A stretch of 51,058 bases of DNA from the IMG/VR virus record IMGVR_UViG_3300015203_000011, positions 1 to 51,058 of that record; one strand, given 5' to 3'. Origin of the DNA: a virus. Under the pieces are notes generated by a model. That model was given only the letters and a program-made list of their open reading frames with translations, was not told where the DNA came from and made no database searches. Position numbers and translations under genes: made by a program. Positions 1,563-51,058 of this stretch are shown here, piece by piece (position 1 is the stretch's first letter; every line of letters begins with the position of its first letter).

Positions 1563-1652
1563 TCATTCTCCTTCATCTGTGTAGTAGTATATAGCAACTA
1601 TCACTGCGAGAAACAAGATCCCTACGAAAAAATTTTTAAGCTTGTTCCACAT
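1563..1652 (-). CDS. 29-aa hydrophobic peptide (tentative)
   Basis: Manual translation gives MWNKLKNFFVGILFLAVIVAIYYYTDEGE, which overlaps both neighbours. Confidence 0.3.
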   Translation of the reverse strand: MWNKLKNFFVGILFLAVIVAIYYYTDEGE

Positions 1653-1797
1653 TTCGGGTTTCCTTTCGTGCGAGGCTTAAATCGTTGTTAATGGCTGTCA
1701 GTAGTTCAGCTGACTCAGTTGTTGTGATGGTTCCTTCGGCCAGTAAGCTGATTACCCATCTAATCTGATTTTCTAGTTCTTCTATTTTCGTTTTCAT
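1636..1797 (-). CDS. 53-aa hypothetical protein, first gene of the leftward arm
   Basis: ATG at 1797-1795 lies 5 nt downstream of AGGAGG (reverse complement of 1803-1808). Confidence 0.45.
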   Translation of the reverse strand: MKTKIEELENQIRWVISLLAEGTITTTESAELLTAINNDLSLARKETRNVEQA

Positions 1798-1825
1798 CTT
1801 GTCCTCCTATTAATACTATGACCCT

Positions 1826-1854
1826 ATTTCGAAAAAGATACAAGTATTTGTCAA
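1826..1854 (-). promoter_or_regulatory. Candidate leftward promoter (TTGACA-17-CGAAAT)
   Basis: Perfect -35 (reverse complement of 1849-1854) but a weak -10. It mirrors the rightward promoter at 2968. Confidence 0.3.
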
Positions 1855-2037
1855 ATATTTTTAATATTACCATAAGTAACTGTATTTATAGTACTTTGTA
1901 TCAAAACGGTCAGTAGATCGATTAAAATTCGACATTCTGGTCAGTTAATGTCACTTTTCGCTCATTTCTGACCATTTGTAGATTCTAGCTTACATTACAT
2001 GTCTTTCTGATAAGTTTATCTAACGAAAAACTTGTCA

Positions 2038-2086
2038 GAGTGAGACACTTTTCAGGGGTGTTTTGAATGACTGAGTGAGACACTTT
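2038..2086 (+). repeat. 14-bp perfect direct repeat GAGTGAGACACTTT (2038-2051 and 2073-2086)
   Basis: Read directly. The two copies start 35 bp apart. Confidence 0.9.
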
Positions 2087-2130
2087 AGATGCCTGTTTAC
2101 CTTTGAAAGGCGTGTAGGTCTGTACAGGAA

Positions 2131-2175
2131 TTAGGTCGTTTTTGAGTGATTTTGGTAATGTTGTACTGCGAATTA
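2131..2175. repeat. Inverted-repeat arm L: TTAGGTCGTTTTT + 20 nt + TACTGCGAATTA
   Basis: Both boxes recur as exact reverse complements in mirrored order at 2538-2582. Confidence 0.85.
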
Positions 2176-2337
2176 TGGATTTGTCGCACTACGAATTCGC
2201 ATCCATATTAGGTTAAAACGGAAAATCACGTACGACATATTTTAGGTTTTCTTGAAAAAAGTGAGCGCAAAAGTTTTTGAGAGGGGGGTCAAAGTGCAAC
2301 CGGATCCTACTAATATGGATCGTTTTTGCCCAAAATG

Positions 2338-2373
2338 GCAAAGGTTACAAAGGTAACCTTTGCAAAGGTTACC
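2338..2373. repeat. Overlapping palindromes: a 26-bp site with 11-bp arms (2338-2363) and a 22-bp perfect palindrome GGTAACCTTTGCAAAGGTTACC (2352-2373)
   Basis: Reverse complement checked base by base. Confidence 0.9.
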
Positions 2374-2419
2374 AACATGTTGTTTTAATTCAATAGGTTA
2401 TAAGGTTTTGTCAGAAAAG

Positions 2420-2440
2420 GTTGCAACAAAAAAGGTTACC
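2420..2440 (-). repeat. Composite site GGTAACC-N7-TTGCAAC (reverse orientation)
   Basis: The plus strand reads GTTGCAACAAAAAAGGTTACC. Confidence 0.8.
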
Positions 2441-2530
2441 TTTTTCCTAGCTAGAATCAGGTACTTAGCTCTCTTTTTAATAGAGGTTGTCACAAATTTG
2501 ATATTTCAAGTCTATATAGGTTGTATGCGA

Positions 2531-2546
2531 TGCGAATTAATTCGCA
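2531..2546. repeat. 16-bp perfect palindrome TGCGAATTAATTCGCA
   Basis: Read directly. The same two 8-mers occur 19 bp apart at 2167-2174 and 2194-2201. Confidence 0.9.
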
Positions 2547-2582
2547 GTAGCAGCAAGGCTCCTATAGTAAAAAACGACCTAA
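2538..2582. repeat. Inverted-repeat arm R: TAATTCGCAGTA + 20 nt + AAAAACGACCTAA
   Basis: Exact reverse complement of the two boxes of arm L, with identical 20-nt spacing. Confidence 0.85.
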
Positions 2583-2638
2583 AATTTGCAACCTCTCTGT
2601 TTTTCCCTTGTAACCCTATGAATAATAACAGGAAAACA

Positions 2639-2659
2639 GGTAACCCCTGTAGTTGCAAC
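2639..2659 (+). repeat. Composite site GGTAACC-N7-TTGCAAC
   Basis: Reads GGTAACCCCTGTAGTTGCAAC. Confidence 0.8.
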
Positions 2660-2695
2660 CTCCTCACTTAAGTACTTGATTAATAACAACAAAGC

Positions 2696-2716
2696 GGTAA
2701 CCTTTGACTTTGCAAC
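2696..2716 (+). repeat. Composite site GGTAACC-N7-TTGCAAC
   Basis: Reads GGTAACCTTTGACTTTGCAAC. Confidence 0.8.
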
Positions 2717-2721
2717 TTGAA

Positions 2722-2800
2722 GTGAGACTAAACGTTTGTATGATGAGACATTGTTTGGCTAAAATGAGACCCCTGTTTCAATGAGGAAATAGTGTCTCAT
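2722..2800. repeat. Phased TGAGAC iteron cluster (starts 2723, 2744, 2765; inverted copy 2792-2800)
   Basis: The three direct copies are spaced 21 bp apart. The inverted copy reads ATGAGACAC. Confidence 0.75.
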
Positions 2801-2967
2801 CAAACCCTAGTTGCGTTGGTTGTTCAGTTGCCCATATTATATAGGAGGGCCCTAATAGGTAAACTTTTCGGGGCCCCCCGCCCATCTAAGAGCACAACTA
2901 ACCCACGTGAGAATTTTCGGCCAAAATTTTCCAGAAAAAATTTTCTATAAAAATAATTTTAGGGGGC

Positions 2968-2999
2968 TTGACAAAGTTTAAGCCTTGGCGCAATATAAT
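2968..2999 (+). promoter_or_regulatory. Candidate rightward promoter
   Basis: TTGACA at 2968-2973. CAATAT lies at 17-bp spacing and TATAAT at 20-bp spacing. AGGAGG follows at 3010-3015 and ATG at 3021. Confidence 0.4.
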
Positions 3000-3020
3000 A
3001 CCAGAGAGTAGGAGGATGAG

Positions 3021-3362
3021 ATGAGAAACAGGATGTTCGATTTCACAGACCAAGCAAGAGCGGCATTAGGAAGCCGTAGAGAGTCTAGGACCTACCTCAC
3101 CCGTCTGGCAAGGCAATACGGCACCCCAGAGCCCACCCTGCGCTCCTACGGCCCCTCAAAGGGCGTTTCGGAGGTTGGGTTCTACAATCCAGTACTTCAC
3201 ACCATATTCTATCTGAGGGACCAAACCCCAGAAGAGACCGAAACAACTATACTTCATGAGTTCGTTCATGCAATCTACGATAGCAAAGGCTACGTAGAAG
3301 AACTTCACGGCCAAGCCTTCCACCTGACCCTGGCTCACCTACTAACCCAGGAACTGAAATGA
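3021..3362 (+). CDS. SprT-like zinc metallopeptidase domain protein
   Basis: Has HEFVH (HExxH) followed by HGQAF, the SprT-like pattern HExxH...HGxxF. Confidence 0.55.
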   Translation: MRNRMFDFTDQARAALGSRRESRTYLTRLARQYGTPEPTLRSYGPSKGVSEVGFYNPVLHTIFYLRDQTPEETETTILHEFVHAIYDSKGYVEELHGQAFHLTLAHLLTQELK

Positions 3363-3742
3363 CAAACTTTCGAAAAATCAATATAATGGAAAGTTCACCA
3401 ATAGAAATTCCATATATAGATCAAGCATGTAAAGAACTAAATATGCCCGTCTGCCCCACAAGATCTTTTCCAAAATTAAGAAAAATAGATAAAGAGGCCT
3501 TCTGCTGTGGTATGTTCGACCCAAAGTTCAATACAATTTTCATTTATGAGAACCTAAGTGAAAAAGAACGAAAGATCACAGCTATACACGAATTGGCACA
3601 TGCATTAGTTTATGCAAACGGAAGTACTTATGGGTATCACGGACCCGAGTTTCAGAAGGCTCTATCGCAAGTAGTAAAAACACAACCAGACATGAAATAC
3701 GATCCTTTTTGGGGTATGACATATGTACGGCCGACTAATTGA
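3359..3742 (+). CDS. SprT-like zinc metallopeptidase domain protein (paralog)
   Basis: Has HELAH followed by HGPEF. ATGA overlap with the upstream paralog. Confidence 0.6.
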   Translation: MTNFRKINIMESSPIEIPYIDQACKELNMPVCPTRSFPKLRKIDKEAFCCGMFDPKFNTIFIYENLSEKERKITAIHELAHALVYANGSTYGYHGPEFQKALSQVVKTQPDMKYDPFWGMTYVRPTN

Positions 3743-3928: not shown

Positions 3929-4474
3929 ATGAAAATAGGTTACGCTAGAGTAAGTACCGACAATCAAACACTCGACCCACAACTCGACGCCCTCAAAAAA
4001 GAGGGATGTGAAAAAATTTTTACGGATGTAGGTTCCGGAAAGAGATCAGATCGACCCGGACTCGAAGAAGCCGTCACGTCCGCGAGCACAGGGGATGTAA
4101 TCTGTGTAGTGAGGCTAGACCGCCTAGGCCGATCCTTACAAAACCTTACGGAAACTGTAACCAAACTTAAGGAAAAGGAAGTCGGGTTTAAAAGTCTCAC
4201 CGAATTAATAGACACAACCACTTCAACTGGAACACTCATGTTCCACATGTTAGGTTCGATAGCTCAATTCGAAAGAGATCTTATGAGAGAGCGTGTTATG
4301 GAAGGTCTAGAATCAGCACGACTTAGAGGGCGGGTAGGTGGCCGACGAATAACAGACCAATCAGCAAGATTAAACGTTCTAAATGCCGTACCAGATGAAA
4401 CGATTAAAGAAACCTGCCACCGTTTAGATATTAGTCGAGCAACCTACTACAGGATACTCAAGAGTGAAAAATAA
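3929..4474 (+). CDS. Small serine recombinase (resolvase/invertase family) with C-terminal HTH
   Basis: Has MKIGYARVSTDNQ, DRPGL, RLDRLGRS, FERDL..ER and a C-terminal ISRATYYRILK. AAGGAGG lies 6 nt upstream. Confidence 0.9.
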   Translation: MKIGYARVSTDNQTLDPQLDALKKEGCEKIFTDVGSGKRSDRPGLEEAVTSASTGDVICVVRLDRLGRSLQNLTETVTKLKEKEVGFKSLTELIDTTTSTGTLMFHMLGSIAQFERDLMRERVMEGLESARLRGRVGGRRITDQSARLNVLNAVPDETIKETCHRLDISRATYYRILKSEK

Positions 4475-5168: not shown

Positions 5169-5291
5169 ATGACCCAAGATGAATACTACAAAAAATCTCT
5201 TTTCTTCAAAAGAGCTACCCTATTCATGCAGATCGTTAGTTCATTCACGGGCATAACCTCACTTATTATTCTATTACTGAAAGTATTATGA
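5169..5291 (+). CDS. 40-aa small membrane protein (not in ORF track)
   Basis: Product is MTQDEYYKKSLFFKRATLFMQIVSSFTGITSLIILLLKVL. The stop overlaps the ATG at 5288 (ATGA). Confidence 0.4.
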   Translation: MTQDEYYKKSLFFKRATLFMQIVSSFTGITSLIILLLKVL

Positions 5292-5869
5292 GCATATTCG
5301 AAACACCCACAAATACATCCAATAACATCCATTTCAAGCCAATTCGAAATGAGAGTAAGGAAGAATACGCGCAGTTCGATTACTACCTGAAGTCTTCTAG
5401 TAGAGACTTGAACGAAGTGGGCATGAAGTTTAAACTTCGCGAATCCGTAGTTAGAAACCTAGCCAAAAAGAACAGATGGGAAGAACGTGCCGCGGCTTAC
5501 GATATTCAGGAACTTGACCTACAAACCCAACTGTCCGTTGAGGTCTTAACCAGTCAAGAGATGAACGTCCATACAATGGTCGAACAACATCTCAAGATTT
5601 CAGCCCTAGCCCAGGAACTTGGGGTTAAAGGCCTTAAATACCTAAACTACGCCCTTTCACAAGCCGAAACCAGTAATCCGATTAAACCCATAATCACTCC
5701 AGCAGACGTTGTTAGATTATTAGATTTCGGTGTCCGCTTAGCGAGATTAACACATGGTGAGGCGACATCTATAACACAAACCAAAAAAGACGTTGATTAC
5801 AGCAAGTTAAGTACCGAAGAACTGCATCTGCTTAAACAGTTAACCGAAAAGAGTAACACCAGTGATTGA
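5288..5869 (+). CDS. Putative DNA-binding protein / terminase small subunit candidate
   Basis: Lies upstream of terL and has an HTH-like segment LNEVGMKFKLRESVVRNLAKKNRWEER. No firm family match by eye. Confidence 0.35.
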   Translation: MSIFETPTNTSNNIHFKPIRNESKEEYAQFDYYLKSSSRDLNEVGMKFKLRESVVRNLAKKNRWEERAAAYDIQELDLQTQLSVEVLTSQEMNVHTMVEQHLKISALAQELGVKGLKYLNYALSQAETSNPIKPIITPADVVRLLDFGVRLARLTHGEATSITQTKKDVDYSKLSTEELHLLKQLTEKSNTSD

Positions 5870-11262: not shown

Positions 11263-11481
11263 ATGCCACCAGTTCGTAAACCATTGGCTAAAAAAGCCAG
11301 CTTATTTATTAGATACCCAGTGCCAGTATTGGCAGTAAGTACTCTTGTAAGCATGTTTGTAACGATGGGCGCTGTGTGGGGAAATTGGACAAGTAGAGTT
11401 GTTTCTTTAGAGGATCAAATCCATAAAGTTGAACAAAAACTGGATGTTATATCCAATAAGATAGACAATCTATCTCACTAA
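11263..11481 (+). CDS. 72-aa membrane-anchored coiled-coil protein, probably on a leaderless mRNA
   Basis: The ATG at 11263 sits at the expected transcription start with no SD upstream. The ORF-track TTG start at 11239 lies inside the promoter spacer. TM segment is VPVLAVSTLVSMFVTMGAVWG. Confidence 0.5.
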   Translation: MPPVRKPLAKKASLFIRYPVPVLAVSTLVSMFVTMGAVWGNWTSRVVSLEDQIHKVEQKLDVISNKIDNLSH

Positions 11482-11646
11482 GTCATCGTCCCAATTAATC
11501 GGATTATGCACGTCATCATCGATTGGCATAATAACAGCAACAATTTTATTGTAGCGTTTTATGTAAACTGGAATCTTCTGAATCTCGACTAGTTCGATAA
11601 CTTTCTTCCAGTGTTTACGAGCTTCAGTAATACTATAGATTATCAT
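11470..11646 (-). CDS. Phd/YefM-like antitoxin domain protein (58 aa), no adjacent toxin
   Basis: MIIYSITEARKHWKKVIELVEIQKIPVYIKRYNKIVAVIMPIDD fits the Phd/YefM N-terminal pattern. The internal ATG at 11646 is preferred. Confidence 0.6.
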   Translation of the reverse strand: MIIYSITEARKHWKKVIELVEIQKIPVYIKRYNKIVAVIMPIDDDVHNPINWDDDLVR

Positions 11647-11718
11647 TGTACGCCTTTTAAAGGGTAGAAAATCGCATAAGTTCGCGATTTTTAACATTTA
11701 TTGAAAATAAATAAAATA

Positions 11719-36356: not shown

Positions 36357-36626
36357 TCAACTCCGTGTATCTTTATCCAGAACAGAGACCGGACCATTTT
36401 CCAATGCTTTTTTGTCTTCGTAAGGTGCTGCTAGCATGCGATAGCATTCCAATTTTGCGCATTCCAATACACCAATTACGGCATTTAGTGCAGTATAACT
36501 TACACCACCATTGCGTTCTAGGTAGCTATGTACCAGTTTGCTTATCAGAAAATTCAGTTCGCCAACGTTTTCTGGAGAATGTGATTCGGTTACCTGCTTG
36601 CGCTGATATGGGGCAATGTATGGCAT
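36357..36626 (-). CDS. Conserved phage hypothetical protein
   Basis: GELNFLISKL...VIGVLECAKLECYRMLAAPYEDKK looks like a recurring phage family that I cannot name. Confidence 0.5.
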   Translation of the reverse strand: MPYIAPYQRKQVTESHSPENVGELNFLISKLVHSYLERNGGVSYTALNAVIGVLECAKLECYRMLAAPYEDKKALENGPVSVLDKDTRS

Positions 36627-37042
36627 TAGACCACCTCTGCATGTACTGACTTAGCTTTTGGGGCTTTCGACTTGCGCTTAGCCCTAGGTTCATCGATTTG
36701 TTTACCTTCAACATCGAAATACTTGACAGGAATACCGGATTTAATAGCAAATTTAATTTCGGCTGTAACCCCTACAGACTCTTTCCAACCGTCCATGGTT
36801 ACTACCCATACCTCATCTGACTTGCTGATGGCGTAGAGGTCTATATCACGCCAATTAGCGAAAGAACCACCCAATGCAGGTATCATCTTCACTAGTTGGT
36901 AGGATTGGGTAATTGGTAGAAAAAAGCAGTTTCCTGTATTCAGGGTTAGGTAAGCTGCTACCTTCGTGATGAGCTTGTAGCGGCTTGTCTGGACCTTTGG
37001 GTCTTTGTCAGAATAGGGGGAGGCAAGGTATATAAGCTTCAT
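36626..37042 (-). CDS. DUF1937 / nucleoside 2-deoxyribosyltransferase-like protein
   Basis: MKLIYLASPYS start, then DEVWVV..GW..S.G...E. Confidence 0.6.
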   Translation of the reverse strand: MKLIYLASPYSDKDPKVQTSRYKLITKVAAYLTLNTGNCFFLPITQSYQLVKMIPALGGSFANWRDIDLYAISKSDEVWVVTMDGWKESVGVTAEIKFAIKSGIPVKYFDVEGKQIDEPRAKRKSKAPKAKSVHAEVV

Positions 37043-38529: not shown

Positions 38530-39716
38530 TATTTTACTCCTTGAACGACCTTCCCTGCGTGAGAGATCATGATATCAATGGCATCCTGACCTTCTTTTCC
38601 ACTAGTATTCAATAGAATGGTTACATCTTCACTTTGTGGATTTTCATCTAAGTATTTATCCAAAGTTGTTAAGAAAACTGCGCGACCTTCGTAGGGGATA
38701 AAATTGTAATGTCCGACACTCTTTTCGGTTGATATTCGTTTGAAGACTGGCTTGAGAAAATCCATAAATTCTATACAATTTATACCTTTACGAGGTATGC
38801 AATCAATTAATAAAGTAAATTTTTCTGATTTTGGAGCTGTTACTGAAGCTTGTAAGGATTCATCCTTTAATAACTCAACTGGTGACGCAGTGACACCTGT
38901 TACTGCATTGGTCGGTAGTGACAGCTGCTTTGGGGGGTTTATGCCACTTGCAAGCTCTTCAAGTACTTCTGAAAGTTGTCGTTTATCTGTCATTTTCATT
39001 CCTTTGGTGCCTACCAGTACTGCCGCACACTGTCCAAACGCCCTACAACCACCTACTGGTGGGTCAAAATCTGAGGCGGTCTTGCCTTCAAGTTTAGCTT
39101 TTTGCATCTCTTTACAGTCATTCAAGACAAGACTAACATAGTTCATAACGAAAGGCAAGTCTGTTTCAATCTGCACAAGCCTTGATTCAGGTACGCCTGC
39201 GGTCTTGTAGTAAATCCATTTTAGGAATGCCTTTTCCTCTTGAAACTTTGAGAGTATGAAAGCGGCATAAATATTGGCTTGAATGTTGTTTTTTAGTGCT
39301 TGTGGGGTCAAAGCATAGTTGAAACTCTTGGTGGTCTTGTGGTCACAAACGTAGAGACCGCTATCATCCTTATAGAACATGTCGATGTAACCACCGAACT
39401 TAAATCCATCTTTTTCGAATACGAAACCTTGTTCAACTTTCGCCGTTCCTGGCTTTGGTAGGTGCTTGATGCCAGCAAGCAGCATCTGCCCGTACTTAGT
39501 GGATGGCTTGATTGGAATACCGTAATCTAGGTACTGTTCCAGTAATTTATGAAGATCCTGACCGCGCTTCGCAGCGAAGTTTTCTGGCTTTTCTCTCTTA
39601 TCTAGATACTTAAAAGCCCAGCAGATCTTGCACTGTCTATAGGTGCTTATCTGACTGGGACTGAAATAGTCTCGCTGAGACGCCTCTTGGTCAAGTATGG
39701 TTACATATTTACTCAC
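38529..39716 (-). CDS. PD-(D/E)XK (Cas4/RecB-like) nuclease, DUF2800-like
   Basis: FSPSQISTYRQCKICW, GGYIDMFY and VCDHKTTK, with a distal GGCRAFGQC cysteine pair. Confidence 0.65.
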   Translation of the reverse strand: MSKYVTILDQEASQRDYFSPSQISTYRQCKICWAFKYLDKREKPENFAAKRGQDLHKLLEQYLDYGIPIKPSTKYGQMLLAGIKHLPKPGTAKVEQGFVFEKDGFKFGGYIDMFYKDDSGLYVCDHKTTKSFNYALTPQALKNNIQANIYAAFILSKFQEEKAFLKWIYYKTAGVPESRLVQIETDLPFVMNYVSLVLNDCKEMQKAKLEGKTASDFDPPVGGCRAFGQCAAVLVGTKGMKMTDKRQLSEVLEELASGINPPKQLSLPTNAVTGVTASPVELLKDESLQASVTAPKSEKFTLLIDCIPRKGINCIEFMDFLKPVFKRISTEKSVGHYNFIPYEGRAVFLTTLDKYLDENPQSEDVTILLNTSGKEGQDAIDIMISHAGKVVQGVK

Positions 39717-40249
39717 ACTTCATTTCCCCAGCAGTCCCAACCTTCGGCCTTTTCTCTTGCGAATAGCTCGATTTTTCCTTGCATAGGAAACATTAATTCA
39801 ATACGTTTTCGTACTTCATCTGGTTTTTTACTATGCTCTCTTCTTTTTTCGCTAAGGAACTGTCGTATGTTCCTTGCACCTCGAGGTTTTGGAATACTTC
39901 CTTTACAGAAAACTAAACAAATCTCACATTCAGACATCGTGTAATAACCTGGATTTGGCCTCTCTTTATTCCAGATGAATGCAATAGTTTTATATTTAAA
40001 GCCCCATGAATTTCCTAACTCTATAGCTTCTTCGAGGTGGGGATTAGATGTCCACATAAATAGGATGCAGTTTTTTTCTGAGATTTCGGGTATTGGTAAC
40101 TTTTTTAAATCTGGGGTTGGCACTGTGGGATAGTGTACGAATGCACTACCCGTGCTTTCTTTTCCATTATGTTGGATACTGCCTTTATAGAACCATGGTG
40201 GGTCGGCGTAAATAACAGCATATTTTTTCTCTGGAAGTGCTGCAAACAT
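39713..40249 (-). CDS. MT-A70 family N6-adenine DNA methyltransferase
   Basis: VIYADPPWFY (DPPW motif). Confidence 0.85.
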   Translation of the reverse strand: MFAALPEKKYAVIYADPPWFYKGSIQHNGKESTGSAFVHYPTVPTPDLKKLPIPEISEKNCILFMWTSNPHLEEAIELGNSWGFKYKTIAFIWNKERPNPGYYTMSECEICLVFCKGSIPKPRGARNIRQFLSEKRREHSKKPDEVRKRIELMFPMQGKIELFAREKAEGWDCWGNEV

Positions 40250-40758
40250 TACACAAGTCCATTTTTCTTTTTAAACTTCAACATTTTCTTTTTTACAATA
40301 TTTTGTTTAAGGGTAGACAGCTCATCAATGAAGAGATGGCCACTTAAATGATCCATTTCGTGTTGTATAATAACGGCATTTTGCCCGTAAAAATGTCTTT
40401 CTTGAGCATTTCCTTCCAAATCAGTATATTTCAATCGAACAGTTGCATGTCGTTTTACGATGTCTGCAAATCTTGGTATTGAAAGGCAGCCCTCTTGACT
40501 ATCTACCTTCTCGACTGACATTTCTGCTATTTCTGGATTTATGAAAACTGAAGGTATTTCTTCACCATCGATTTTCGCTATGAAAATAGCATCACTCAGA
40601 AAAACTTGATTGGCAGCAAGGCCCACCCCGCCAATTCTCTCCAGCGTCTTGTTCATAAGTAATACTTTATCATTCAATAAACTATCTGGAAGGACTACCT
40701 GTTTTGCGTGTTTTCTGAGGCTAGCGTGAGGATGTAAGGATAATATTTGTTGGTTCAT
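40249..40758 (-). CDS. def: Peptide deformylase
   Basis: All three PDF motifs are present: GVGLAANQ, EGCLSIP and HEMDHL. Confidence 0.9.
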   Translation of the reverse strand: MNQQILSLHPHASLRKHAKQVVLPDSLLNDKVLLMNKTLERIGGVGLAANQVFLSDAIFIAKIDGEEIPSVFINPEIAEMSVEKVDSQEGCLSIPRFADIVKRHATVRLKYTDLEGNAQERHFYGQNAVIIQHEMDHLSGHLFIDELSTLKQNIVKKKMLKFKKKNGLV

Positions 40759-43166
40759 TGAATGTCCCTTGGTAGTGGAGGTGGTTTTTGTTCACCTCTG
40801 ACGATAGTATTGACTGAGGTCAACGAAAGTAGTTCGTCTCTTGTGGAGTAGTTATTCATTTCTGCCCATGCTACAAGATTGTCAAAATCTACATGCCAGA
40901 AACGTAATACTTCTTTGTTAATTTTAATAGATTTTTTCTCTTTTTTGCATATTCGAATCAGGGCTTTAGATGTTTTTGATGGTGTTGGTGGCAGAGTATG
41001 CGTATCGTACATCGTCCAATAATCGTTCAGGGCCTTAGCAGTTACATAAATTTCGTTGTCCCTTACCAAGACCTGACCCTTGCTCTGAGCATCCACTTTT
41101 GCTGGACTTTGAAGATAACTCACAAGCCAATGGCAGATGTTAGAAGGTAGACCTGTTCCTATGGCCATTCTGCGGTGGAACTGGGAGTTCGTAGTGTCGA
41201 TTATGAATCTACTCTTGTTTTCAATAACTCGATTTTCTACAAGCCAGAGCGCATAGGCTGCTATTCTATCGTCTTTTATGAAACTGGCAACTGTATCCCA
41301 GCCCAGACCTTCGAGGAATTCTTTGACCTCTTTGTTATTACAATTGATGTATAGGAAACGTCCTGCTATGGCGTTGATATCCTCTTGTGACAGATCCTCG
41401 TGTGTTCCTAGCAGGTCGGCGTTATTGGCTGCCAGAATGAGTCTAATGCAGCCCTTTAGCTGCATTTCTAGCTTGAACTTACGTCTCAACTGTCTAGTCT
41501 CGGCCTGAATGAACTCTCTAAGTTCACCAGTATTGCCATTTTTACGAAAAGTGGACGGCATTACTTCATCTGCAACGATTAAAGGGCACCTACTTAGGGT
41601 TTCATTGAAGCCTTCCCCCATGGCTTGACCTAGTTTTGGTGGTGCTCCTTGACCCCAAATTCTGGCAAGTCCATCAAATAGTAGACTTTTTCCATATCCG
41701 GCATCGCTATGAAGGTATAGGGCAACAGAAGGTCTTGAAAGATCTGTTATGGAGGCCATGAAATCCTTGAGCTGCCCCTCTTGTTCCCCAGCTAATAACT
41801 CAATATATTTTTCAACTAGTGGGTCATATTTCGGTTGAATGTTTCGTCTTGGGGCCGTTGCTTCAATAAAAGTTTTTATTTTTTCATTGTACTTTGATTT
41901 TTGAACTGTAAGATCAGCTTCGATAGTGAAGCATGGACTTCCGTAATCAATGGTTAATTCCGTAATTGACTTCGCTGTAACATTACCTCTTGAACGAACT
42001 GCTTCAGTGGACACTCCTGCCGTTATTGCTGGAGCTAAAAATGTATCGCATGCATTTAATAGGTCCTTCTCGGTAATAGGAGGCAGATAAGACCCATTGA
42101 AGAAGATGTAATAGGTACCACAACTGTGAATGATCCAACGTTTTTTGAACTGCTGGGAATTACACTCCGCATCGTCGTAAAACGATTGAAGTTCTTCTGG
42201 GGTATAGGGGTGTGTTCTTTGAGCATCACTTCCGAATGCTACAAGGATTTTTTGAGCTATGGCATTATCTAACTCTGCCTGTATTGCTTGCTTTTCTTCT
42301 AATAATTGTTCTTTAGCTCTGCGTAATTTATCTTCAAACCAACCTGGTTTATTGGAACTCGGGTTATCTAATTGCATTACTGCAATGCTACTCAAAAAAA
42401 TATTTGTTACATTTTGAATATCGCAAGTAGGAAATTCCTTAACGATAGCGTGCGCAATCTTGAAGAGCATGTTATCTCTTTCGCCTATTGGAGCTATTGG
42501 ATTTCCTTTCAAAGCTTGTAGTATTGCTTGAGAAATGCCCTTTGAGGAGTCGCCTAGTCTTCGTTGTAATTTATATGCTAGTTGTCTAAGATCTTCAGAG
42601 TCTAGTTTCTTAATACCCGAAAAATCTTGATTCAACAACCAATCTACATCGAAAGCGTTTCCTTCGTGTTGTTTAATCCAATGAGGCCCATCTCCATCAA
42701 CCGCGGGGAAGTAATATCCTCGTTGAATATCCTTCGCTGACTGATCTATGACTTTATCAAAATACAAATTTAACTTGTTCCAAAATTTGGACCATTCTAA
42801 TTTATCTACAGGTCTTGATAGCGGAAATAGGAATCGAACACGGTGTTGGTCATTTAATTCCTTTTCTCGGGAATGTGACCATGAAGTGTAACTAATATAG
42901 GACGTTTCTTCTAGCTTTTTTTCAATATCCCTCATTTGAGCCAATGAAACATCATCTAGATCTATAACACCTAAATGGGCTTGTATCGCTGTGTTATTGC
43001 TGTGAGGCTGTCCGGGTTTGAACTCGGCGGCTGAAAACATGGGGACATCTTTTTTGGATGTATAGCGTGTTTCGTGTTTAGAAAAAAGTTTCTTTAACTC
43101 GTCCCAAGAAATCTCCTCCTGCGCAACAACTCGACTGCTGTATGTTTCCAAAATCGATATTTTCAC
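40755..43166 (-). CDS. Primase / SF3-type helicase (D5/P4-like)
   Basis: 803 aa. The C-terminal half has a P-loop (SDAGYGKSL) and IVADEV. The N-terminal half has prim-pol-like acidic motifs (VIDLDD). Confidence 0.7.
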   Translation of the reverse strand: MKISILETYSSRVVAQEEISWDELKKLFSKHETRYTSKKDVPMFSAAEFKPGQPHSNNTAIQAHLGVIDLDDVSLAQMRDIEKKLEETSYISYTSWSHSREKELNDQHRVRFLFPLSRPVDKLEWSKFWNKLNLYFDKVIDQSAKDIQRGYYFPAVDGDGPHWIKQHEGNAFDVDWLLNQDFSGIKKLDSEDLRQLAYKLQRRLGDSSKGISQAILQALKGNPIAPIGERDNMLFKIAHAIVKEFPTCDIQNVTNIFLSSIAVMQLDNPSSNKPGWFEDKLRRAKEQLLEEKQAIQAELDNAIAQKILVAFGSDAQRTHPYTPEELQSFYDDAECNSQQFKKRWIIHSCGTYYIFFNGSYLPPITEKDLLNACDTFLAPAITAGVSTEAVRSRGNVTAKSITELTIDYGSPCFTIEADLTVQKSKYNEKIKTFIEATAPRRNIQPKYDPLVEKYIELLAGEQEGQLKDFMASITDLSRPSVALYLHSDAGYGKSLLFDGLARIWGQGAPPKLGQAMGEGFNETLSRCPLIVADEVMPSTFRKNGNTGELREFIQAETRQLRRKFKLEMQLKGCIRLILAANNADLLGTHEDLSQEDINAIAGRFLYINCNNKEVKEFLEGLGWDTVASFIKDDRIAAYALWLVENRVIENKSRFIIDTTNSQFHRRMAIGTGLPSNICHWLVSYLQSPAKVDAQSKGQVLVRDNEIYVTAKALNDYWTMYDTHTLPPTPSKTSKALIRICKKEKKSIKINKEVLRFWHVDFDNLVAWAEMNNYSTRDELLSLTSVNTIVRGEQKPPPLPRDIQ

Positions 43167-44062: not shown

Positions 44063-44240
44063 TTTTTACTCGTGTTAAAAAGTTTAACAATCTAATAACT
44101 TTCAATTTATTGAGTTTTTCGCCTTCACGAATGGATAACTCATCTACTCTTACGTATTCAACACAACTACCATCCTCACGAACCCATGTTGTTTCGACTA
44201 TATCGAATCCGGTAGGTTGATCTCGTAAAACGAATGTCAT
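44022..44240 (-). CDS. Hypothetical protein
   Basis: 72-aa ORF. Confidence 0.45.
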   Translation of the reverse strand: MTFVLRDQPTGFDIVETTWVREDGSCVEYVRVDELSIREGEKLNKLKVIRLLNFLTRVKNEEKNMEKGEKNE

Positions 44241-44368
44241 TTTTTTGCCTTTTTTCTAGCTTTTTTCTGTTCCTGCAGAAAAAATAGCCAAGTTGTTGCT
44301 GCCAAATTTCCGATTATGATGGCTACTGCTATGGCCGTAGATTCAATAATTATTTGTACTAGTGTCAT
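44237..44368 (-). CDS. 43-aa small membrane protein (not in ORF track)
   Basis: Product is MTLVQIIIESTAIAVAIIIGNLAATTWLFFLQEQKKARKKAKK, with ATGA overlaps on both sides. Confidence 0.4.
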   Translation of the reverse strand: MTLVQIIIESTAIAVAIIIGNLAATTWLFFLQEQKKARKKAKK

Positions 44369-44544: not shown

Positions 44545-44567
44545 AAAATTTCCTATGTAGTTCTTGT

Positions 44568-44596
44568 ATCCTACTTCAAAAAATAAATCTTGTCAA
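44568..44596 (-). promoter_or_regulatory. Promoter TTGACA-17-TAGGAT (leftward replication operon)
   Basis: Reverse complement of 44591-44596 and 44568-73. Confidence 0.5.
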
Positions 44597-44647
44597 GAGT
44601 TGCTTTTCTTGGATTGGGTTGTTATCTTAACAATGGAGGCAGATTTT

Positions 44648-45070
44648 ATGATTTACATTTTGTCATTCATTGCTATGTTCGAGTCATTCACACACGACCC
44701 CTACCATGACAGGGCTCAAAATACGGTAGGTTATGGCTCCAAAGCTACTGAAAAGATGTGTATTACTGAGGATTATGCCTTGGCAATGCTGCAACGTGAT
44801 GTAATGTATCACTATTCTAGGGTCTCTAAGCTAAAAAATTTGAACGCCTGCCAAGTGGCGGCCTTAACTAGCTTCAGCTATAACGTAGGTTATGGGGCAT
44901 TTAGGGCCTCTAGGGTCTATAAAGAGGCAAAGGCTGGTAGATTACATGGTGCAGCTGATGCCCTCGATTCCTGGGTCTTTAAATCAGGCAAAAAAATGAC
45001 GGGCCTTGTAGCCCGTCGTAAGGTAGAAAAGAGGGTATTTTTGGCCTCTAATCTAAATGGATGCCGATAA
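44648..45070 (+). CDS. Second GH24 lysozyme-like protein, on the opposite strand to its neighbours
   Basis: Motifs FESFTHDPYHDRAQNTVGYG (Glu-Asp-Thr pattern), LTSFSYNVGYGAF and GLVARRKVE. GGAGG lies upstream of the ATG at 44648. Confidence 0.7.
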   Translation: MIYILSFIAMFESFTHDPYHDRAQNTVGYGSKATEKMCITEDYALAMLQRDVMYHYSRVSKLKNLNACQVAALTSFSYNVGYGAFRASRVYKEAKAGRLHGAADALDSWVFKSGKKMTGLVARRKVEKRVFLASNLNGCR

Positions 45071-48453: not shown

Positions 48454-48483
48454 TTCCCCCTTTTTCGAAGAAAAAAGGGGGAA
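48454..48483. terminator. Hairpin terminator (bidirectional type)
   Basis: TTCCCCCTTTTT-loop-AAAAAGGGGGAA. Confidence 0.55.
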
Positions 48484-48498
48484 TTTCCGTTAGTGATA

Positions 48499-48714
48499 TC
48501 ACAATTTGTAGTCAATATATTCGTTAAATTCAATCAAATCTATGGCTTTACGGTGTTCTTTGGGCATATTTTCCATCATTGTTTGATAATATAAAAGTGC
48601 AAAAAACTCATCTACATTGCATTTTTGAAAATACTCTCTGTTTGGATCATCGGGGTTTTCTAGAGCATTTTTCAATAAATTTTCAATTTTTCGTTCCTGT
48701 TTGGTTTTTTTCAA
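48499..48714 (-). CDS. Hypothetical protein
   Basis: 71-aa ORF. Confidence 0.5.
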   Translation of the reverse strand: MKKTKQERKIENLLKNALENPDDPNREYFQKCNVDEFFALLYYQTMMENMPKEHRKAIDLIEFNEYIDYKL

Positions 48715-49177
48715 AGCGAGCTCCTGTTAAATTAGCACTATAATAATTAATATTTGTAATATTAGCCTCTAAAAAATTTGAATTCTTTAGATCGGAATAT
48801 TCGAAACTGGCGTTTGTTAAATTAGCCCCTTGAAAGTCTGCATTATGGAGTATTGACTGTTCAAAATTTGCATTTTTACAATTTGCATTTTCGAAATTCG
48901 TATCGATAAGAATAGCTAAATAAAAATTTGCATTTGTTAAATTAGCAGATGAGAAATTTGCATTTCTCAAAATTGACCCATAGAAATTTATTCCTGATAA
49001 ATCGGCACTGCTAAAATCTAATCCTTTTAAATCTTTACCTTGGAAACTCACGTTTTGCCAATTTGGCCTCCTAGATTTTGTTAATCCTGATTTTAAACAT
49101 TGTTGATGTATTTCTAGGGCATCAATCAATTCTTTTTTATCTGCTTCATCGCAGATTTGGTTTAGTGTTTTTTTCAA
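48683..49177 (-). CDS. Pentapeptide-repeat protein
   Basis: About 20 consecutive A(D/N)LxX-type pentapeptides (ADLSGINFYGSILRNANFSSANLTNANF...). Confidence 0.85.
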   Translation of the reverse strand: MKKTLNQICDEADKKELIDALEIHQQCLKSGLTKSRRPNWQNVSFQGKDLKGLDFSSADLSGINFYGSILRNANFSSANLTNANFYLAILIDTNFENANCKNANFEQSILHNADFQGANLTNASFEYSDLKNSNFLEANITNINYYSANLTGARFEKNQTGTKN

Positions 49178-50890: not shown

Positions 50891-51058
50891 TTTTCGTTCC
50901 TTATTACGCAAACATCGTGAATTGCGTAATCAATATTACATTGTGGCGTATTTGGAGGTTTGTTGGCAAAGAGTTCTTTCAATTTTTCTTCGGCTTTTTC
51001 TAATGTTCGGTAAATGCCTAAACAATTTTCTTTTTGGTATTTCAAGTATTCCCATACT
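50887..51058 (-). CDS. 3' part of the junction-spanning 61-aa ORF (5' end truncated by the window edge)
   Basis: Same ORF as 1..113. Confidence 0.5.
   Translation of the reverse strand, partial: VWEYLKYQKENCLGIYRTLEKAEEKLKELFANKPPNTPQCNIDYAIHDVCVIRNEK
50960..51058. repeat. Terminal direct repeat copy 2
   Basis: Identical to nt 1-99. Confidence 0.97.

Follow-up and report, generated by a model that had tools for sequence, protein, structure and literature searches.

The DNA analyzed here is the IMG/VR virus record IMGVR_UViG_3300015203_000011, a stretch of 51,058 nucleotides (the window), and our subject is a pair of mirrored arms at positions 2131 to 2582, which lie in a gene-free hub between two divergent operons. 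Positions 1 to 99 are the same 99 bases as positions 50960 to 51058, and this overlap of identical ends makes the assembly circular and the sequence a complete phage genome of 50,959 bp. The genome is that of a tailed phage. An independent Logan assembly (run ERR4837134) is identical to the window across the 20.5 kb compared and has the segment between the arms in the same orientation. The two arms, which we call pair A, are made up as follows:

2131–2143, plus strand: box 1, left copy, TTAGGTCGTTTTT, 13 nt
2144–2163, no strand: left spacer, 20 nt, unrelated to the right spacer
2164–2175, plus strand: box 2, left copy, TACTGCGAATTA, 12 nt, including the half-site TGCGAATT
2194–2203, minus strand: inner inverted half-site, left, reading GATGCGAATT on the minus strand, 18 nt from box 2
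2529–2538, plus strand: inner half-site, right, GATGCGAATT
2538–2549, minus strand: box 2, right copy, exact reverse complement of the left box 2
2550–2569, no strand: right spacer, 20 nt, holding a -10-like TATAGT
2570–2582, minus strand: box 1, right copy, exact reverse complement of the left box 1

A preliminary description of this DNA had reported mirrored arms with exact reverse-complement boxes around unrelated spacers of identical length. All of this holds: both spacers are exactly 20 nt, and they match at 4 of 20 positions, which is the random level. Box 1 and box 2 each occur exactly twice in the 51-kb window. As a chance test, genomes were counted that have two separate exact inverted blocks on one axis, within 2 kb and 60 nt. 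The real genome has one such case, with blocks of 13 and 12 nt; among 200 first-order Markov genomes, the two-block arrangement appeared in none at k=11 and in two at k=10. The mirrored arms are real and beyond chance. In a gapped alignment, the left half and the reverse-complemented right half have no homology outside the boxes; the boxes are thus conserved islands rather than the remnants of one large decayed palindrome, an origin that we ruled out on this ground. Read directly, box 1 agrees with the reverse complement of box 2 at 3 to 6 of 12 positions.

A second, inverted TGCGAATT half-site is present in each arm as a third element, and the whole arm reads box 1, N20, box 2, half-site. On the right, the half-site abuts box 2 to give a perfect 16-bp palindrome, TGCGAATTAATTCGCA, at 2531–2546. 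The two TGCGAATT dyads are unequal, being 35 bp wide on the left (gap of 18 nt) and 16 bp wide on the right (gap of 0 nt), and are about 330 bp apart. The axis of the arms, at 2356.5, falls within a cluster of palindromes at 2338–2373. Exact and relaxed arm patterns had no hits in IMG/VR, and scans with the arm pattern elsewhere returned only single, chance-level hits in unrelated taxa: 21 in JGI metagenome contigs and 14 in 185,579 species genomes, where about 22 are expected by chance.

The hub around the arms

The arms share the hub with several other sets of repeated motifs, some of which recur in L083, one of three related phages taken up in the next section. The main features of the hub are these:

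1800–3020, no strand: gene-free hub, 1.2 kb between the leftward and rightward divergent operons, with no called genes
2041–2098, plus strand: two TGAGACAC...TGTTT units, an outer motif layer left of the arms
2338–2373, no strand: three alternating GCAAAGGTTAC units, forming two overlapping palindromes, the strongest dyads of about 24 bp in the genome; the double GGTWAC unit is common to L083
2420–2467, minus strand: left arm of a second mirrored pair (pair B), TAAGTACCTGAT - spacer - GGTAACC - N7 - TTGCAAC
2639–2659, plus strand: third copy of GGTAACC-N7-TTGCAAC, the other copies being at 2420–2440 (minus) and 2696–2716 (plus)
2669–2716, plus strand: right arm of pair B, TAAGTACTTGAT - spacer - GGTAACC - N7 - TTGCAAC
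2744–2799, both strands: three TGAGAC units, at 2744 (plus), 2765 (plus) and 2793 (minus), right of the arms

The sole long open reading frame (ORF) of the hub, at 2360–2671, has no family match and no homologue in the relatives. Inverted 10-mer pairs number 32 in the hub, whereas the other 1.2-kb windows average 1.7 and reach at most 12; this is the most inverted-repeat-dense 1.2 kb of the genome. The AT skew turns at about 2200, where the operons diverge. The most AT-rich 60-mers lie at 1847 (82% AT), which is also the left promoter zone, and at 2374 and 2472 (72 to 73% AT). A perfect 22-bp palindrome at 2352–2373 lies near the common axis of several nested inverted-repeat pairs. The GGTTACC palindromes had been placed in the segment enclosed by the arms. 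Indeed, five of the six GGTNACC sites of the genome fall within the hub and three of these five lie between the arms, but the remaining two are outside, at 2639 and 2696.

At least five motif families can be counted in the hub, and one of them repeats the design of the arms. This second bipartite motif, GGTWACC-N7-TTGCAAC, has three copies, all in the hub, with 7-nt spacers that are not conserved; the expected number is 0.03. Two of its copies belong to pair B, whose composite plan is TAAGTACYTGAT-spacer-GGTAACC-N7-TTGCAAC. Aligned without gaps (the reverse complement of 2420–2467 against 2669–2716), the two arms of pair B share TAAGTACYTGATT, then N14, GGTAACCTTT, N4 and TTGCAAC; again, the boxes are kept but not the spacers. 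With its axis at 2568, pair B encloses the right arm of pair A, giving the order A-left, B-left, A-right, B-right along the hub. The TGAGAC units, five in all, lie outside the arms on both sides.

A promoter function for the arms was considered and rejected. Only arm R has a sigma-70-like match, TTCGCA-16-TATAGT at 2541–2568 (plus strand), which uses non-conserved spacer bases; arm L has no counterpart, and the five sigma-70-like matches in 1600–3100 are at the level of shuffles (3.7 +/- 2.2). Separately, ATTTTAGGGGGC at 2955–2974 stands directly 5' of the TTGACA -35-like hexamer of the rightward operon and recurs in the L124 hub at 107–121; on its position and recurrence, it may be a conserved promoter-proximal element.

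The layout of a handle, a core and a second handle also has a superficial likeness to guide RNAs. The arms could then act as RNA, either as two guide-like RNAs of about 45 nt or as a long-range stem that brackets a transcript as a processing site. On either strand, the fold of a 476-nt segment is better than those of shuffles (z = -4.7 and -5.5), but an equally good fold on both strands is what inverted repeats at the DNA level are expected to give. Taken by themselves, the arms lack a significant fold (z between -1.0 and +1.0) and nothing meaningful was found for them in Rfam, so that a structured RNA or known RNA family was discarded. Furthermore, the promoter-like signal is at shuffle level, the operon promoters are outside the arms, and no RNA-guided enzyme was found in the genome. 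We consider an RNA function highly unlikely. The earlier proposal, in which two units of opposite orientation keep their handles and vary in a 20-nt core, is accurate as a description and fits DNA binding sites, but not RNA units.

Related phages and their hubs

Searches made with the recombinase, an SprT-like protein and the large terminase TerL revealed no close relatives of the phage in the collections searched, the best TerL being 57% identical. Neither the genome nor the hub has a nucleotide match in INPHARED or PLSDB (megablast and blastn), and no deposited phage has a TerL more than 39% identical. The phage belongs to an undescribed lineage without deposited relatives. Using the hub module as a probe of IMG/VR was of no help, as it returned four chance hits and no relatives. 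The nearest phages examined are L083, L085 and L124, with TerL proteins 47 to 56% identical; 7 to 21 kb of each contig was examined. Packaging genes are syntenic with the window in all three, as are structural genes in L083 and L085. In L124 (8450–18450), genes for the primase-helicase, deformylase, nuclease and helicase come after the portal gene and share its strand; this order, which differs from that of the window, reflects either a large rearrangement or a chimeric Logan contig.

All three relatives have a gene-free region of 1.2 to 1.6 kb at the same position, dense in short motifs and containing inverted pairs. The L085 hub has an 18-nt perfect mirrored pair 315 nt apart and three 21-bp palindromes, and the L124 hub has a 27-nt mirrored pair (93%) 96 nt apart. 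Some of the motif vocabulary is common to them and the window, and the pair B module recurs in L083, L085 and L124. GCTAAGTACYTGAT is found in the hubs of the window, L083, L085 and L124, and in the window, L083 and L085 it is followed 15 to 19 nt on by a GGTNAC-type box. Its sites are:

Window 2456–2467 (minus) and 2669–2680 (plus): GCTAAGTACYTGAT
L083 4621–4632: GCTAAGTACYTGAT
L085 5583–5594: GCTAAGTACYTGAT
L124 479–505, 602–628 and 123–145: GCTAAGTACYTGAT

This is a motif of 12 to 14 nt with the palindromic core AAGTACTT, often present as a mirrored pair, and the protein that reads it could be a conserved phage protein or a host factor. In addition, GGTWAC is enriched in the L083 hub also, GTGTCTCA (the motif of the TGAGAC units) and ATTTTAGGGGG are common to the window and L124 hubs, and TTGTACAAG is common to those of L083 and L085.

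Box 1 and box 2 are absent from the examined parts of the relatives, and no recombinase homologue was found in those of L083, L085, L124 and a further contig, L084. Since the relatives' hubs have mirrored composite sites and no recombinase was seen in the parts examined, a hub with such sites is a feature of the lineage that is independent of the recombinase. Box 1 and box 2 themselves are a private addition in this phage.

The arms could also be the terminal inverted repeats of a 452-bp non-autonomous element, similar to a miniature inverted-repeat transposable element (MITE) or a Tn3-derived inverted-repeat miniature element (TIME), inserted in the hub. The size and the terminal repeats fit, and a relative of Tn3-type resolvases is encoded nearby. 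However, the flanking bases, AGGAA and AATTT, show no target-site duplication, no transposase was seen among the genes scanned, and the genome has a single copy, with no real match in IMG/VR, JGI metagenomes, the 185,579 species genomes, INPHARED or PLSDB. Over their middle 20 nt, the two repeats agree no better than random sequence, and the enclosed segment carries ancestral hub motifs common to the relatives. An inserted element of this kind is very improbable.

The serine recombinase and the packaging genes

Rightward of the hub, the plus-strand operon runs from 3021 to about 27,900 and carries accessory, packaging and structural genes: two SprT/ImmA-like mini-metalloprotease genes, a 64-aa ORF and the serine recombinase, then TerS, TerL, portal, capsid and tail. 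The leftward minus-strand operon, for replication and early functions, begins at 1797, crosses the circle junction and ends at about 28,100. Its products include a D5/P4-alpha-type primase-helicase, a family-A DNA polymerase (PolA), an SNF2-type helicase, a PD-(D/E)XK nuclease, a DNA methyltransferase, PhoH-PIN and a peptide deformylase, among others. The proteins scanned include neither a repressor nor an integrase. Two of these genes enter the interpretation of the arms:

3929–4474, plus strand: small serine recombinase, Pfam Resolvase E = 2e-42, profile positions 2–144 of 145
40755–43166, minus strand: D5/P4-alpha-type primase-helicase, with a 40% identical homologue in L124

The SprT/ImmA-like genes (3021–3362 and 3359–3742) are tandem and overlapping, encode the HExxH motif, and are absent from the examined parts of the relatives. 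The first has a GC content of 0.515, in the top 0.6% of genome windows, and so looks recently acquired; it is the only composition outlier. The recombinase gene has a GC content of 0.443, a value equaled or exceeded by 17% of genome windows, which makes a compositional argument for its foreign origin weak.

Other genes deserve mention in their own right. A PhdYeFM-antitoxin-like gene (11470–11697, minus strand) lies on the opposite strand within the late structural operon, a position kept in L083 (16354–16545) and L085 (13171–13347). The lysozyme gene (44564–45070, plus strand) is the sole plus-strand gene within the minus-strand operon and is inverted with respect to its L083 and L085 orthologues. 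A 20-nt, 90% inverted repeat around it (44236–44255 and 44981–45000) was set aside as probably due to chance, consisting of an A/T run spanning a start codon and coding sequence. Between the PhoH-PIN and pentapeptide-repeat genes, a 28-bp GC-clamped palindrome, TCCCCCTTTTTCGAAGAAAAAAGGGGGA, at 48455–48482 is probably a bidirectional terminator. Finally, the early operon encodes a nucleoside 2-deoxyribosyltransferase (36626–37042), the DNA methyltransferase (39713–40249), the peptide deformylase (40249–40758) and a pentapeptide-repeat protein (48683–49177), which possibly have DNA-modification or host-takeover functions.

The preliminary description had recognized a resolvase/invertase-type serine recombinase at 3929–4474 and saw no other evident target for it than the arms, and both points are borne out. 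Besides the Pfam match, the catalytic motifs YARVST, LDRLGRS and GRVGGR are intact, and the enzyme is apparently active. The nearest solved structures are the Gin invertases (PDB, E = 1e-38), followed by the Tn3 and gamma-delta resolvases, in full-length alignment, and there are thousands of cellular homologues at 55 to 59% identity, with none closer. Arm R and the start of the gene are separated by 1,347 bp and three ORFs, and upstream of the gene there is a gap of just 11 bp. In three cellular homologues examined, the 290 to 480 bp immediately upstream of the gene are non-coding, and the dyads found there are unrelated from one homologue to the next. No consensus for a clade-specific site emerged from the contexts of the closest homologues (L122 and L123). 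No inverted-repeat pair of at least 16 nt in the genome is target-like or stands beside the recombinase gene. A scan with a hix/gix consensus gave a best genome-wide full-site score of 15.5, against 14.5 to 16.5 in shuffles; with the half-site consensus, the arms score 2 to 3.5 per half-site out of a maximum of 11. A tail-fiber G segment was also considered as an alternative target, and the genome has no G-segment-like duplication.

The arms could be read as the target of this enzyme, either as the ends of an invertible segment, 2176–2537, or as a dispersed res-like site that resolves genome multimers. This has several attractions. An apparently active, Gin-like recombinase is encoded 1.35 kb away and has no other target that we could find; like the boxes, it is private to this phage, albeit with n=1. 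The crossover sites of Hin and Gin are two equivalent inverted sites of about 26 bp, each an imperfect dyad of half-sites of about 12 bp around a 2-bp core. The Hin/Gin/Cin/Pin segments resemble the present one in that inverted repeats bracket a few hundred base pairs and in the recombinase itself, which is closest to Gin. However, the arms have neither 26-bp dyad crossover sites nor a hix/gix-like sequence, the recombinase gene is not adjacent, no orientation-dependent gene or promoter was identified, and no tail-fiber cassette is present. In neither arm do related half-sites form a dyad around a 2-bp core, and the left and right TGCGAATT dyads, at 35 bp and 16 bp wide, are not matching crossover sites. 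The invertible element that had been proposed thus gained no support.

The res alternative fares similarly. In res, subsites are 25 to 34 bp long, and three dyad subsites fit into about 120 bp immediately before the resolvase gene. The likeness of the present region to the res of Tn3 and gamma-delta consists of the half-site TGCGAATT, found in dyads of different spacing, loosely as in res subsites, and of a recombinase that aligns over its full length. In contrast, there are two dyads rather than three, they are 16 and 35 bp wide, some 330 bp apart and 1.4 to 1.8 kb from the gene instead of in a compact site, and box 1 has no counterpart in res. The earlier suggestion of a res-like multi-subsite site gained no support from this comparison.

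Other observations also argue against a recombinase target of either kind. The gap upstream of the recombinase gene is 11 bp, whereas the cellular homologues have hundreds of base pairs there; the arms are interleaved with ancestral hub motifs and lie outside the accessory cassette; and the same mirrored composite plan occurs in the relatives' hubs, with no recombinase in the parts examined. The segment has no credible ORF, its promoter-like signal is not above that of shuffles, and it has one orientation in two independent assemblies, which is weak evidence. Taken as a whole, a recombinase target is unlikely. The more specific idea, that the private recombinase inverts the 362-bp hub core through non-canonical synapsis or crossover sites (non-dyad and bipartite) represented by the private arms, has a small chance of being right, about half of that given to a recombinase target as a whole. 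A flip would make pair B and the three GGTWACC-N7-TTGCAAC sites direct repeats, turning the TAAGTACYTGAT/GGTWACC-TTGCAAC module from mirrored to direct relative to its partner, and the phage would be a virulent phage with a phase-variable switch of replication or of early/late transcription polarity.

The position of the hub upstream of the packaging genes, in this phage and in all of the relatives, raises another alternative, in which the arms or the hub are the packaging initiation (pac) region, with sites for the small terminase subunit flanking a cleavage zone. Symmetric site clusters around a center are a known pac design, as in P1 pac and SPP1 pacL/pacR. The circular assembly is compatible with headful packaging, TerL carries a Terminase_6C nuclease domain, and a TerS candidate is encoded at 5288–5869. 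However, terS lies 2.7 kb and about ten genes downstream of the hub, and known pac sites are usually within or beside terS. Moreover, TerS is kept among the relatives (32 to 39% identical), whereas box 1 and box 2 are not. A pac function is accordingly a decidedly unlikely one.

The arms as candidate binding sites

We favor, at somewhat better than even chance, a reading in which the arms are two binding sites in mirror image, each bipartite (strictly, tripartite), for a sequence-specific protein or protein pair, and the hub serves as origin or control region. They look like one of several such pairs in the hub. We infer protein binding, looping and this role from the anatomy of the arms, their non-chance status, the hub context and the recombinase-independent analogues in the relatives. 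The central point is that 25 nt are perfectly kept in two blocks while the spacers, equal in length, are at random-level identity, which indicates selection on two contact patches at a fixed geometry and not a recent duplication. The second bipartite motif and the interleaved pair B, built in the same way, support the binding-site reading. A role as origin or control region is suggested by the divergent operons, the AT-skew turn, the presence of genes for a D5/P4-alpha-type primase-helicase and PolA, and the lack of a repressor or integrase in the set of proteins scanned. Between the two functions, an origin is modestly preferred over pure transcriptional control.

A possible mechanism would be the following. 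Box 1 and box 2 of each arm, whose starts are 33 bp apart, or about three helical turns, would be contacted jointly from approximately the same side of the helix, with the intervening 20 bp left unread by the binding protein. The second inverted TGCGAATT half-site would add a dimer-type operator, which on the right is the perfect 16-bp palindrome. The arms, at about +/-180 to 225 bp from the GGTWACC palindrome cluster, could then be bridged or co-occupied to form a looped nucleoprotein complex over the cluster, and this complex would set up either replication initiation or the decision between early and late divergent transcription.

Three known systems offer points of comparison. Iteron-type origins are read by a primase-helicase or initiator, as in the ori/crr of satellite phage P4, bound by the alpha protein, and in lambda ori. 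Like the iteron origins of P4, PLE and lambda, the hub is gene-free, has clustered short repeats in both direct and inverted orientation, lies between divergent operons, and belongs to a genome with its own D5/P4-alpha-type primase-helicase. It differs in having at least five motif families instead of one iteron, and the arms are two-copy bipartite elements with a 20-nt spacer rather than arrays. The primase-helicase has no match in deposited phages and no detectable relative in the PDB; we regard this enzyme, by inference, as a candidate hub-binding initiator. The P1 parS site, with its box A and box B, is a bipartite centromere site read by two domains. It shares with the arms two different boxes at fixed spacing, an unread stretch between them and mirror symmetry about a center, but no ParB or partition genes were found in the phage, and the spacing and sequences are unrelated. 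In the N15-type tos/telRL site, a central 22-bp palindrome has nested flanking inverted repeats, and the hub palindrome at 2352–2373 is similarly placed near the common axis of nested inverted-repeat pairs. In this case, no protelomerase was seen, the genome is circular, and the recombinase is a small serine enzyme. In PLE, the repeat-bearing non-coding region (NCR) between divergent operons is the origin, as established by a coverage peak, deletion and electrophoretic mobility shift assay (EMSA) with RepA (PMC7145576).

Several points weigh against the binding-site reading and the origin role. The arms have no assigned binding protein, and box 1 and box 2, being private to this phage, offer no conservation to compare. 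The case for origin function is drawn from context, in which the skew is confounded with gene orientation, and there is no extreme AT-rich unwinding element between the arms, where the best 60-mers are those of 72 to 73% AT. The recombinase cassette is private as well, and its co-occurrence with the arms in this one phage is compatible with a functional link.

If the arms are indeed a mirrored pair of binding sites, they would provide a clean natural example of bipartite site recognition, in which two perfect boxes and a free 20-bp spacer are presented in mirror image. For specialists, this is a useful finding and not a surprising one, and it would acquire much greater weight only with a demonstration that the recombinase flips the hub core. 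The motif vocabulary that the hubs share across phages gives a defined starting point for mapping the origin and the early/late control of this lineage.

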